64,000 nucleotides of DNA from an uncultured Clostridia bacterium (GCA_934182605.1 CAKPRQ010000002.1:44361-108360); one strand, 5' to 3'; numbered from the stretch's first letter, positions 40,579 to 43,312 are shown. The notes: generated by a model not told the origin, from the letters alone. Made by a program: numbers and translations.

Positions 40579-40920
40579 ATGAATATTAAAATCTTAAGTT
40601 CTTTGAAAAATGTGGCTAATGAACGGAGCACTACTATAACCATCGGCACTCATAACGGTATCTTTCATTCGGATGAGGTGCTTGCCTGTGCTATTCTGTG
40701 TTTAACTTATTCCAAAGCAACTATACATATACTGCGGTCACGAGATAATGAAATACTCCAGCACTGCAATATAGACTATATCTTCAAATCATTTGACGAT
40801 TCTATTATCGTTCCAATTGATTGTGAGGATAATGGAGTTACAGTAGAAAATCACACTTTTAGTTTCATTTCTTCTTTTTTACCTTTGTGGTTTAACAATA
40901 TTTTTTGTTATCTAACATAA
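40579..40920 (+). pseudogene. N-terminal fragment of a MYG1/UPF0160-family metal-dependent hydrolase gene. It is truncated after about 80 conserved residues, and its GC content (about 40%) is higher than that of the flanks.
   Basis: IGTHNGIFHSDEVLACAIL...LRSRDNEIL...CNIDYI matches the MYG1 N-terminal motif (GTHxGxFHxDEALA). The remaining ~230 aa of the family are absent, and the tail has diverged. Confidence 0.5.
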
Positions 40921-40963
40921 AAAATCCTCCTAACATACTTATTTAAGTTTATGTTGGAGAATT
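40904..40963. repeat. direct repeat copy 2 of the dacB-leader hairpin element
   Basis: AACATAAAAAATCCTCCTAACATACTTATTTAAGTTTATGTTGGAGAATTTTTTTAGTAC. It is about 85% identical to copy 1 and retains the SD and ATG, but a stop codon follows after only 8 codons. Confidence 0.5.
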
Positions 40964-40990
40964 TTTTTAGTACTCAAAGTAATATATTAA

Positions 40991-43312
40991 TTATTCTTCT
41001 TTCTTCTTAAAATTAAAACTTAATGCATCTGAATTATTAAACCAAGCTCCACCATCTGTTGTATTCATTTGTATTGGATCAACTTCTCCGTTTTCATCTT
41101 CAAAGTTTACATTTCCAAAATTAAATTTTAACTTCTTTTTATTATCATCATCTGATGAACTGCTAACAGATTTATTAAATCTATCAAATCTATAAATCTT
41201 TTCTGTTTGTTTTTCCTTATATTTACTCTCTAAGAAATCAACTTTTCCTATACCAACTACACTACCACCGCCAACATTTTTTGTCTTATATACACAACTC
41301 TTGAATTTAAGTGTCTGTATCTTTCCCTTGTTTGCATGAGGTGTCCAATCATATTTTATACCAGAAAGTTTACCTTCATATTGACCTTTTTCTGTATCAT
41401 AATTTTGGCCAAATTTCCAATCACGTTTATTACCAAATTCGTCTTGCCACCATTCGTTATCTTCTGGTGTATTTCCACCAAATACTAATTTAGTTGGAGA
41501 GTTTACTAATATTATTTTTCTATAATGTTCTCCTGCATTTTCTGTATCAAATTGGTCTAAACTTTGTGCAGATATTACAGAACCTACTCTATATTTTCTA
41601 TATAATGTGAAAATCGGTACTGTTGCTTCTCCAACAAAGTCTGAAAATTCATCCACATAAAAGAAATGTGGCATGCGTGAACGCTCATTTCCAGGTCTAC
41701 TTAATACAGAATGTTGCATTAATAATATAAAGAATAATCCGAATGCTTTATGTGCTGTAGCTCCTAAATCACCTCGTCTTGTACAAGCTAATGTTATTTG
41801 TCCAGATGCTAGTACTTCATCAAAATTTATATTTGTATTTCTATTACACAAAACATTTTTTACTCCAGGGTATCTTAAAAGTGTATCTAATTGTGTTATT
41901 GCTAGTTGAACATTTCTTTCTGTTTCTTCTCGCGATGTTCCCCCTCTAAAGAAGTGCTTTTTAAAATATCCAATTTGTACTGCATATTGTTCTGCTAAAT
42001 CGGGTTCTTCCATCATCTTTCTACACATAACTTCTACTAAATCAAAGTCATTTAACATTTTCAGCATATCTTCTAAGTTCGGTAAGATTCCATTACTTAA
42101 TCTAGGATACATTTCTTTCAATAAAATCGATAAATTTTCAACTGCTTGCATTGCTGCATTTTCCTTATAAACCTCATCAGTATCAAGTGCGATTGATTTA
42201 TACATACCTCTAATTACAGATGAAATAACAATTGCTGTTTTTGTCGGATTATCATATACAAATGGATTTAATCCTAATGAATCTGGATTATTTGGATCTA
42301 TTAAATTTACCTTCATATTATAATTATTTGCAACACTTAAAATATGTTGTGTAGATTCAATATCTGGTGATAAATAAGTTAATCCTAGATTTCTATACAC
42401 ATAATTTCCACCTGAATTATCTTGTATAATGTTTTTCATATATGTTTTATAAACTGTTTCTTTATATGGATTAGGTGATATCATACTCATATCAAAATTT
42501 TCATTTATATATTCATTTGTATATGGACAATTTAAAACTGCTACACCTGCTTTTAATGCTGTAAAAGCCATTTCTTTAGATACAGATCTAAAGAAAAATT
42601 TTTTTTCTATATCTCTTGCCATCATTGGTTCAAACACCATAGAAGTTTTTCCTAGTCCTGAACCACCTACAATTAAAGACACTTCAAACCTTCTATTTTC
42701 TGGTATTTTTACGTCTTTGCCTTTATTAGCGTCTTTACAAAGAGTAACTTCACAAGTATAAGGACCTGTCCCCTCTTTTGATGTATTTAAATTAATTCCA
42801 CCATAATCTAATATAGAGTCTTTTAAATCCTTAGATTCGTTTACATTTGTATACAAAAACTTAAATAATGTAGGTACTGTTAATATCAATACATATATTG
42901 CAATTGATTTAAATGGTGGCCCTATCAATTCTTGAAAATTTTCTACTATATATGAATAATTGGGAACAAATGATAATAATAGCCATCCACCATAATTAAC
43001 CCATTGTATTAACATTGATATACCTATTATGTATAGTGCTATACAATATATATAAAAAAATGATATTTTTGTTTCATCATTTTTTATAAATTTAGAAGGA
43101 CCTGATAAATAAAATGCTGCAATTGGACACGCTAATGCTAAGGTGTATTGAATTGGCCCCCAATATGAAACAGAAATTCCTGTAAAAAACATAAATAAAA
43201 TTTCTACTACTCTATCTACTACTAAATATATTGTTATTAATGTAAATATATATGTTAAAAATGTATTTCTATCTGTGTTTAAAAATTTTAAGAATTTATC
43301 TATTATTTTCAC
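40991..43312 (-). CDS. membrane-anchored P-loop ATPase of the FtsK/TraG/VirD4 (type IV coupling protein-like) superfamily; orphan
   Basis: 773 aa. About five N-terminal TM helices. Walker A VGGSGLGKTS. Walker B-like FFYVDEFSDF. No other conjugation genes lie nearby. Confidence 0.45.
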   Translation of the reverse strand: MKIIDKFLKFLNTDRNTFLTYIFTLITIYLVVDRVVEILFMFFTGISVSYWGPIQYTLALACPIAAFYLSGPSKFIKNDETKISFFYIYCIALYIIGISMLIQWVNYGGWLLLSFVPNYSYIVENFQELIGPPFKSIAIYVLILTVPTLFKFLYTNVNESKDLKDSILDYGGINLNTSKEGTGPYTCEVTLCKDANKGKDVKIPENRRFEVSLIVGGSGLGKTSMVFEPMMARDIEKKFFFRSVSKEMAFTALKAGVAVLNCPYTNEYINENFDMSMISPNPYKETVYKTYMKNIIQDNSGGNYVYRNLGLTYLSPDIESTQHILSVANNYNMKVNLIDPNNPDSLGLNPFVYDNPTKTAIVISSVIRGMYKSIALDTDEVYKENAAMQAVENLSILLKEMYPRLSNGILPNLEDMLKMLNDFDLVEVMCRKMMEEPDLAEQYAVQIGYFKKHFFRGGTSREETERNVQLAITQLDTLLRYPGVKNVLCNRNTNINFDEVLASGQITLACTRRGDLGATAHKAFGLFFILLMQHSVLSRPGNERSRMPHFFYVDEFSDFVGEATVPIFTLYRKYRVGSVISAQSLDQFDTENAGEHYRKIILVNSPTKLVFGGNTPEDNEWWQDEFGNKRDWKFGQNYDTEKGQYEGKLSGIKYDWTPHANKGKIQTLKFKSCVYKTKNVGGGSVVGIGKVDFLESKYKEKQTEKIYRFDRFNKSVSSSSDDDNKKKLKFNFGNVNFEDENGEVDPIQMNTTDGGAWFNNSDALSFNFKKKEE

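Follow-up and report, generated by a model that had tools for sequence, protein, structure and literature searches.

The stretch of DNA studied here, 64,000 nucleotides from an uncultured Clostridia bacterium (GCA_934182605.1, CAKPRQ010000002.1:44361-108360; called the window below), encodes a 773-aa membrane ATPase related to the coupling proteins of type IV secretion systems (T4SSs). An original prediction, made from the sequence of the window without database searches, had read this gene as an orphan coupling protein left by a decayed integrative and conjugative element (ICE) or genomic island, bounded by repeats and accompanied by a foreign fragment of a MYG1 gene. Its fallback was that the ATPase had been domesticated for another membrane translocation role, and it is the fallback that our results support. 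The ATPase is very probably a core chromosomal gene rather than the relic of an ICE, and the best reading is that a clade of gut Clostridia with low GC content, probably spore formers, domesticated its family. The interpretation that we favour, with a probability of roughly 0.55, is that this chromosomal ATPase is derived from a type IV coupling protein (T4CP) and works with a Replic_Relax-like protein, termed F3 here, as a co-opted DNA module.

A membrane ATPase with the predicted fold of type IV coupling proteins

The open reading frame (ORF) described originally, with its Walker A (GGSGLGKTS) and Walker B (FFYVDEFSDF) motifs, was confirmed on the minus strand (Table 1). When 33 ATPase sequences were aligned, the Walker A and Walker B residues and the motifs RRGDLG, YRKYRV and SAQ were found to be invariant or nearly so (G216, G219, G221, K222 and T223 of Walker A are all invariant in the family), and for this reason the enzyme is very likely active. 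Assignment to the coupling-protein fold, which had also been proposed, was borne out by structure comparison, and profile matches fell on both sides of the cut-offs. The Pfam profile TraG-D_C matched with 25.4 bits (cut-off 22) and TrwB_AAD_bind with 19.8 bits, just below its cut-off of 20.5, and many of the homologues bear precomputed T4SS-DNA_transf and TrwB_AAD_bind matches. NCBIfam contained no match for the ATPase or for the MYG1 fragment, and searching PDB chains with the ATPase sequence and profile gave only noise. An AlphaFold2 model computed from 33 homologues had a mean predicted local distance difference test score (pLDDT) of 77, reaching ~90 over residues 190-700. Comparison of this model with the PDB using Foldseek gave Cag-beta of H. 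pylori, TrwB and DotL as the top matches, followed by HerA, DndH and VirB4; 376/420 residues of TrwB-deltaN70 could be aligned to it, and identity to the solved T4CP structures in such structure alignments was 11-15%. The model also contains an all-helical segment (~residues 356-503) between Walker A and Walker B. Taken with the alignment, these comparisons make it likely that the 773-aa protein is an active membrane ATPase of the T4CP fold, a view that we hold with some confidence.

About five transmembrane (TM) helices had been proposed for the N-terminal domain; hydropathy, the pattern of positive charges in the loops and the AlphaFold2 model all favoured four, at residues ~18-43, 50-70, 83-104 and 133-156, the membrane topology itself being predicted by hydropathy and the positive-inside rule only. 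The first helix holds three invariant charged residues (D33, R34 and E37) that would be buried in the membrane; Y50, W51, C62 and P63 are also invariant, and many invariant residues lie in the second helix and the outer loop. At the other end of the protein, the charged C-terminal tail is predicted to be disordered (pLDDT below 50 for residues 715-773) and carries two conserved motifs, DPIQ...D and F-N-N-x-D-A-I-S-F-x-L-K-K. By analogy with known coupling proteins, it is a candidate partner-binding tail.

The protein therefore combines features by which T4CPs are recognised: a P-loop domain of the FtsK-HerA type with Walker A and B motifs, an all-alpha domain inserted into it, and an N-terminal TM anchor. 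The anchor is shared with TrwB (R388), VirD4, Cag-beta and DotL, and the charged, disordered tail is likewise a T4CP trait. Unlike T4CPs, which usually have two TM helices, the ATPase has about four, with invariant buried charges, and in the model it has an extra beta-rich module in its C-terminal part (residues 628-690). A further property of T4CPs, being encoded together with a T4SS on a conjugative or mobilisable element, was not seen in ~20 related loci or in the flanks of the gene in the window; the ATPase is, in contrast to T4CPs, chromosomal, core and vertically inherited, without T4SS, integrase or plasmid context. It would also resemble FtsK, SpoIIIE, SftA and TcpA of pCW3 in being a membrane-anchored ring ATPase of the same superfamily. 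FtsK and SpoIIIE are chromosomally encoded and move double-stranded DNA across membranes in spore-forming Firmicutes.

Conservation of the ATPase in housekeeping contexts

More than 3,271 homologues were retrieved by a word-indexed search. The top 120 are ~770-790 aa long, are covered over their full length and are 56-92% identical to the ATPase. Among 50%-identity representatives, exhaustive searching with HMMER delineated a compact family, in which a few clusters exceed 50% identity and sparse full-length relatives have 28-42% identity; beyond these, the matches were to proteins of 900-1,100 aa and were confined to the C-terminal half of the ATPase. The protein was found in all related lineages sampled, and every related locus retrieved had a GC content of 25-31%. 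In the window the gene has a GC content of 28.5%, against 26.9% for the window as a whole, and its GC content at third codon positions (GC3; 0.14) equals the gene background. Ratios of non-synonymous to synonymous substitution rates (dN/dS) were 0.08-0.11 when the gene was compared with its counterparts on contigs L012, L020 and L021, indicating that it is under strong purifying selection. Its divergence also parallels that of housekeeping neighbours, since in the comparison with L009 the ATPase was 57% identical, the RluD proteins 65-68% and F3 63%.

Conservation extends upstream of the coding region. A sigma-A-like promoter and the 5′ leader, nearly identical between loci (CTTGnTTTTTT, 17 nt, TATAGGATAAT, then TTGAAAGTGGTGAA) were retained in 17/17 loci compared, despite the fact that the upstream neighbour differs; the leader, ~45 nt long, is conserved beyond what would be expected for an untranslated region. 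The gene order HU, SpoVB/MurJ-like flippase, ATPase was present in 10 of 13 loci, with the flippase divergent from the ATPase, and the flippase adjoins the ATPase in L020 and L023 too. On the other side, and convergent with the ATPase, lie F3, sometimes an S1-domain protein, two RluD genes, LspA and a gene designated F7. As reconstructed from these loci, the ancestral order is HU, SpoVB-like flippase, ATPase, Replic_Relax gene (F3), then rluD and lspA. In the window F3, both RluD genes and F7 remain together at 22862-28369, beside spoVAC and spoVAD, and we therefore conclude that the ATPase was moved ~17 kb by a local rearrangement. Its position varies among close relatives as well: it is beside the flippase and HU in L020 (85% identity), convergent with ctpB in L021 and L022 (83%) and between ctpA and dac, the gene for a D-Ala-D-Ala carboxypeptidase, in L012 (91%). 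In a metagenome-assembled genome labelled Oscillospiraceae (L003), a 1,729-aa protein without a Pfam match (4652-9841) is encoded directly upstream of the ATPase and downstream of SpoIIP.

These results bear directly on the proposal that the gene is the orphan coupling protein of a decayed ICE. In all ~20 related loci the ATPase has housekeeping genes as neighbours, and T4SS, integrase and transposase genes were not found there; thousands of related genomes carry it in such contexts, so that conservation in relatives outside any mobile-element setting, which the original prediction had itself named as the finding that would speak against it, is what we observed. Integrase, transposase, VirB4 and other T4SS genes are absent from the ~12 kb around the gene in the window. 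The statement that relaxase genes are missing too holds for the same ~12 kb and not for the window as a whole, which contains F3, a Replic_Relax/MOB_C-like gene. A relic would also sit poorly with a full-length gene with dN/dS of ~0.1, and neither a patchy distribution nor an atypical composition was seen. What can be said for an ICE, apart from the T4CP architecture itself and the repeats and MYG1 composition treated below, comes from distant plasmid homologues. The best plasmid matches (29-30% identical) are proteins of 900-1,000 aa on plasmids of C. beijerinckii and C. botulinum, and they adjoin tyrosine recombinases and a DUF87 (VirB4-like) gene; they are plausibly real coupling proteins of the type ancestral to the chromosomal family. 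In 50,697 phage records tblastn detected only two weak partial matches to the ATPase, and the IMG/VR viral contigs contained no relatives. Taking sequence, predicted structure and synteny together, we conclude that the family is vertically inherited and probably descends from conjugative T4CPs (the TrwB/VirD4 lineage of the FtsK-HerA superfamily); descent of this particular gene from a resident ICE or island is extremely improbable.

A Replic_Relax-like protein as the putative partner of the ATPase

In F3, which is 312 aa long, a winged helix at the N-terminus is followed by a C-terminal alpha/beta core. Its homologues number 4,961, and the best 120 of these are almost all 311-314 aa long and 65-99% identical. 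The window copy matched the Pfam family Replic_Relax (PF13814) over profile positions 1-177/191 with 25.0 bits, marginally under the cut-off of 25.3; the orthologues in L009, L048 and L049 scored 27.3, 30.2 and 30.7 bits, and many homologues carry a precomputed PF13814 match. PHROG gave no match for F3. In the CONJscan scheme PF13814 represents the MOB_C relaxase superfamily (PMC5357655). Steczkiewicz et al. placed Replic_Relax in the PD-(D/E)XK superfamily (PMC3424549), and the MOB_C relaxases TraX of pAD1 and MobC of CloDF13 are related to PD-(D/E)XK restriction endonucleases, have an N-terminal winged helix and form no detectable covalent adduct with DNA (PMC12857230).

F3 adjoins the ATPase in 6 of 13 loci, and the two are also adjacent in two distant lineages, where the ATPases are 38% and 42% identical and the upstream neighbours differ. 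In several chromosomes F3 follows an S1-domain gene and is transcribed in the same direction. The same S1 gene to F3-like gene arrangement occurs on Firmicute megaplasmids (C. perfringens pJFP838A, B. thuringiensis BTB_502p and P. polymyxa pSC2), and a plasmid of C. beijerinckii carries S1 and F3-like genes no more than 8 kb from a T4CP-like gene. From this distribution we propose that the ATPase and F3 were co-domesticated from a mobilisation-type module; a functional link between them is likely.

Several observations were made on the megaplasmids themselves. Genes for a response regulator, an S1-domain protein and an F3-like protein are clustered on pJFP838A (L050, 3205-7084), pSC2 (L051, 5115-7828) and BTB_502p (L055, 6871-9867), with an extra 100-aa ORF between the response regulator and S1-domain genes in the last, and the F3-like operon is embedded in a conserved replication/recombination cluster (topoisomerase IA, RecD-like helicase, tmk and recJ). 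A 743-aa 'AAA family ATPase' encoded beside the F3-like gene of pJFP838A was considered as a counterpart of the chromosomal ATPase and rejected, as the two are not homologous.

Known pairs of this kind provide a direct comparison. In MOB_C modules such as MobB/MobC of CloDF13 and that of pAD1 TraX, a T4CP-like ATPase stands beside a winged-helix, PD-(D/E)XK-type Replic_Relax/MOB_C protein (PMC5357655, PMC12857230), an arrangement that the ATPase and F3, with its predicted nuclease-like core, would share in the ancestral gene order described here, and CloDF13 carries its own T4CP (MobB) and relaxase (MobC) and no T4SS (PMC3357382, PMC12857230). Unlike these modules, the chromosomal pair is fixed between rluD/lspA and spoVB-like/hup, its two genes are convergent and in the window 17 kb apart, and its match to the Pfam family is borderline. 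Relaxases of the TraX type bind five direct repeats located 70-120 bp from nic. Alignment of the ATPase with CloDF13 MobB by hhalign matched the Walker A region only (probability 22%), and in the CloDF13 record, where the mob ORFs are fragmented, no Replic_Relax match was found. Bacillus phages 0305phi8-36 (orf200/201) and SPO1 (gp27.3/27.4) have a 'DNA translocation operon' that places a MobC-like relaxase beside a VirD4-like ATPase outside any conjugative element and without a T4SS, and whose biological role is unknown (PMC3357382). Unlike the chromosomal pair, those genes are phage-borne and non-essential. In the literature we found no description of a core chromosomal T4CP/MOB_C pair in Clostridia.

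A nuclease-like protein paired with an ATPase of this superfamily could also be an anti-plasmid or anti-phage defence system, comparable to HerA-nuclease, DptH/DndFGH or TdpAB. The predicted PD-(D/E)XK fold of the partner (PMC3424549) and a weak PADLOC match to mad8 (26 bits) point in that direction. Defence systems are, however, accessory and patchily distributed, whereas the ATPase-F3 pair is core, syntenic and found at a single locus. The best structural match is TrwB, with the all-alpha domain aligned, and the ATPase is membrane-anchored with a T4CP-like tail; the PADLOC matches were not significant at the family level, and the defence libraries gave only sub-threshold matches. A defence function is thus decidedly unlikely.

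More serious is the possibility that the domesticated ATPase serves the cell envelope or sporulation, for example by providing the energy with which, alongside the SpoVB/MurJ-like flippase, a protein or polymer is exported or assembled, and that F3 is unrelated to it. The recurrence of the divergently oriented flippase next to the gene is consistent with this, as is the fact that after the rearrangement in the window the ATPase is again found among envelope genes (FtsEX, two M23 peptidases, a CtpA/B-like protease and dac). Its membrane domain is unusually conserved, with invariant buried charges, and Dot/Icm and Cag structures are among its top structural matches. Some T4CPs, namely those of the Dot/Icm and Cag systems, translocate proteins. 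On the other hand, the ATPase carries a conserved promoter of its own and changes position independently of its envelope neighbours; envelope genes are abundant, and adjacency to them may be chance; and a role of this sort leaves the side-by-side occurrence of two conjugation-derived families unexplained. We consider an envelope function unlikely on balance.

Partnership of the ATPase with F3 in a DNA module, the interpretation that we prefer, has its own weaknesses. DNA as the substrate of the ATPase is suggested by ancestry only. The two genes are convergent and hence not co-transcribed, they are separated in the window and in L012, L020 and L021, and their adjacency elsewhere is by itself weak evidence because both lie inside a larger conserved housekeeping block. 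The sub-cut-off Replic_Relax score of the window copy counts here too, and F3 could be a replication or regulatory protein, because the megaplasmid F3-like genes occur in replication/recombination clusters without an adjacent T4CP. Finally, the repeated association of the ATPase with cell-envelope genes is compatible with a role unrelated to DNA. In our best reading, the ATPase is probably a membrane-anchored DNA translocase, and the further claim that it acts on DNA together with F3 is tentative, its chances lying somewhat below even.

The MYG1 fragment is a recently broken native gene

The small ORF next to the ATPase was placed correctly on the opposite strand; it was not, as had been stated, upstream of the ATPase, because the two genes are convergent and the ORF sits past the ATPase stop codon. 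It begins with the N-terminus of MYG1/UPF0160 (DHH superfamily), as proposed: residues 21-65 correspond to positions 1-45 of the 318 in the Pfam MYG1 model (E = 5.6e-14) and include GTHNGxFHxDE. The description of ~80 such residues followed by divergence has to be revised. Residues 1-65 are kept, an in-frame deletion after nt 40773 has removed DIGGxxDHHQ, and 42 more MYG1 residues follow (residues 66-107, DYIFKSFDDSIIVPIDCEDNGV...FLPLWFNN, starting DYIF), which correspond to the IDxEDNG...FxPxW segment when full-length orthologues are aligned. Beyond nt 40899 the homology is lost, at the start of a copy of a direct repeat (D1b), and the ORF ends with six unrelated residues derived from this junction. 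Compared with the orthologues of 321-327 aa, the ORF lacks ~215 residues at the C-terminus, roughly two-thirds of the protein.

A foreign origin for this fragment was not supported. Intact MYG1 genes of 321-327 aa with the same MNIKILSSL N-terminus were retrieved at the DNA level from related contigs of 25-31% GC, and in at least 12 related low-GC loci the full-length gene is divergent from Sua5. The GC content of about 40% reported for the ORF applies to codons 21-65 (40639-40773, 135 bp; 40.7%) and not to the whole ORF (32.7%). GC3 of this stretch is 0.38, compared with 0.13 ± 0.06 for genes of the window and 0.11-0.29 for MYG1 orthologues, which puts it in the top 1% of the segments compared. 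Such a local excess could be counted in favour of an ICE relic; only these 135 bp deviate, however, and the excess does not mean that the gene is foreign, because the flanking intergenic region and the synteny with Sua5 are orthologous to those of relatives.

The same broken form is present in conspecific contigs. In the protein database every homologue of the 113-aa ORF is short (66-179 aa), and the ends differ. The retained N-terminus has a dN/dS of 0.12-0.20 against the orthologues, similar to the 0.17-0.36 among intact orthologues themselves, from which we conclude that inactivation was recent. Could the ORF instead encode a functional small protein? It still has a ribosome-binding site (RBS) and an ATG, and its reading frame stays open over the internal deletion; related metagenomes have many predicted short ORFs for the MYG1 N-terminus, and the N-terminal dN/dS is low. 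Against this, the short ORFs end variously through different lesions (frameshifts, deletions and fusion to an integrase fragment), relatives have the intact gene, and the window copy has lost the catalytic DHH motif and terminates in junction-derived residues. The low dN/dS is what recent inactivation would give, and the only two differences from the conspecific contig L024 are both non-synonymous. A functional small protein is therefore very improbable; by these comparisons the ORF is a recently broken native MYG1 pseudogene (MYG1′) unrelated to the ATPase module.

In one relative of the fragment (P0137), the MYG1 N-terminus (~70 residues) continues in frame into the C-terminal portion of a tyrosine recombinase (PF00589), and several other shortened MYG1 copies break near residues 62-80. 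There are hints here that MYG1 has a recurrent breakpoint or insertion site.

Repeats and local rearrangement

The direct repeats noted originally exist (D1, 38995-39045 and 40900-40950, extending to ~90 bp). They do not bound the ATPase: they bracket the NTPase_I-T, Sua5 and MYG1′ genes, and what is duplicated is the 5′ region of dac. MYG1 is cut at D1b, which is the junction of the rearrangement and, lying downstream of the ATPase, also resembles a terminator-like hairpin. The 1.9-kb block between the repeats is present in the window and in conspecific contigs L024, L057 and L058, whereas blastn showed that in L012, here an 87%-identical relative, no such block lies between the ATPase and dac, and dac is inverted. 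Because the block is extra and dac inverted relative to L012, the D1 repeats mark a rearrangement of housekeeping DNA; a local event placed the NTPase-Sua5-MYG1 block beside the ATPase and cut MYG1. From the comparison of these contigs, the block is displaced housekeeping DNA and not an island. Positions 1-669 of L024, where the sequence switches at D1a to apt and a truncated polC N-terminus, were not used as evidence, since the conspecific contigs L057 and L058 keep the window order and the junction is probably an assembly chimera at the repeat.

The element called repeat copy E in the original prediction is also real. It is a palindromic hairpin (fold -40.7 kcal/mol, z = -7.6) without an Rfam match, and belongs to a family of ~95-120 nt with at least nine copies in the window and many in L012 as well. 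The copy upstream of the ATPase (43410-43547 with its flanks) is absent from L024, a contig of 98.8% identity, and an imperfect ~11-bp duplication (CTGTTCCG(G)TA) flanks it; on these two grounds the hairpin behaves as a recently mobile miniature inverted-repeat transposable element (MITE). MITE-like hairpins probably contribute to the scrambling of gene order in the clade. A mobile hairpin and direct repeats so close to the ATPase could be taken as marks of an ICE, but with D1 confined to housekeeping genes and MYG1 native to the clade and paired with Sua5, that reading gains little.

Other features of the window

On one side the ATPase is flanked by the Sua5/YciO-type, NTPase_I-T and dac genes, and on the other by genes for a CtpA/B-like S41 protease, two M23 peptidases and FtsX/FtsE. 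Farther away lie those for IF3, L20, LeuRS, RuvX and an AAA-ATPase_like/PDDEXK_9 protein. The window contains no tRNA gene and no Rfam family, and thus no integration site of the tRNA type. Since spoVAD and a spoVAC/EB-family gene are present in the window, and SpoIIP and BofC in relatives, the host is probably an endospore former.

Two genes between the rearranged block and F3 deserve mention. A 560-aa protein with AAA-ATPase_like (PF09820) and PDDEXK_9 domains is encoded at 33907-35589, between IF3 and a pilin-like gene. A 400-aa gene at 36130-37332 (minus strand) combines a prepilin-type N-terminus with an FGE-sulfatase domain, and its last ~100 codons (36130-36400; GC content 41-45%, GC3 0.38-0.67 against a gene background of 0.13) are the strongest compositional anomaly in the window.

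Table 1. Features of the window and their positions, counted from its first nucleotide.
Feature	Position	Strand	Basis or remark
Unannotated 146-aa ORF	20953-21393		precedes spoVAD
spoVAD	21412-22422		convergent with Replic_Relax-like gene
spoVAC/EB-family gene	22419-22817		convergent with Replic_Relax-like gene
F3, 312-aa Replic_Relax (PF13814)-like protein	22862-23800	minus	Pfam profile
Repeat D1a	38995-39072		at real start of dac gene
1.9-kb block between D1 copies	39073-40899		NTPase_I-T, Sua5/TsaC-like, MYG1′
NTPase_I-T	39166-39687		Pfam
Sua5/TsaC-like	39847-40461		Pfam
113-aa ORF with RBS and ATG (MYG1′)	40579-40920	plus	ORF call
Repeat D1b	40900-40990		duplicate of dac 5′ region: hairpin, RBS, start codon
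773-aa membrane ATPase gene	40991-43312	minus	ORF call
Conserved tail motifs of ATPase	41000-41080	minus	alignment
Walker B, residues 550-559	41636-41665	minus	D554 invariant in family
Walker A, residues 216-224	42641-42667	minus	family alignment
N-terminal membrane domain, residues 1-157	42842-43312	minus	alignment, hydropathy and loop charges, AlphaFold2 helices
Sigma-A-like promoter of ATPase	43349-43378	minus	-10 TATAAT 43349-43354; -35-like 43373-43378
Palindromic hairpin element (repeat copy E)	43416-43535		intergenic, upstream of ATPase
Hairpin copies	6088-6183, 9174-9282, 28527-28578, 37617-37653, 43416-43535 (copy E)
Further hairpin copies	44981-45056, 45080-45161, 49956-50053, 60158-60272

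Discussion

How the favoured module might operate can be outlined from the properties of its components. The ATPase would assemble into a hexameric ring anchored in the membrane, with ATP driving the movement of nucleic acid, and it would work with the 312-aa winged-helix/nuclease-like Replic_Relax (MOB_C-type) protein; in many genomes the S1-domain protein, with its oligonucleotide/oligosaccharide-binding (OB) fold, may also take part. Such a module would recognise a DNA site, process it and pass the DNA on to the motor in the membrane, with no cognate T4SS involved. A bolder version, which we regard as rather doubtful, is that relaxase-like, coupling-protein-like and often S1/OB-fold proteins were captured from a plasmid and fixed, throughout a clade of gut Clostridia, as a core chromosomal machine acting on host DNA without a dedicated T4SS. 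Its task might be to pump chromosomal DNA through a membrane or to segregate it, at the septum or the forespore for example; DNA export or import is a second option; a third is that it renders the chromosome mobilisable through the T4SSs of co-resident elements, as a built-in system like that of high-frequency-of-recombination (Hfr) strains.

Coupling proteins and relaxases are usually taken as hallmarks of mobile elements and serve as markers in mobilome-annotation pipelines. Here an ATPase of the T4CP fold and, beside it in most relatives, a homologue of MOB_C-type relaxases behave as housekeeping genes, being found at a single locus, syntenic and conserved in their promoter. Genomes with this ATPase family will therefore be wrongly annotated as carrying a 'mobilisable element'. 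The MYG1 fragment, the repeats and the local differences in GC content represent ordinary genome decay and rearrangement. If the pair does act jointly on DNA, it would be a rare case in monoderms of a host co-opting the DNA-processing machinery of conjugation, and would provide a handle on DNA trafficking in an abundant uncultured gut lineage.

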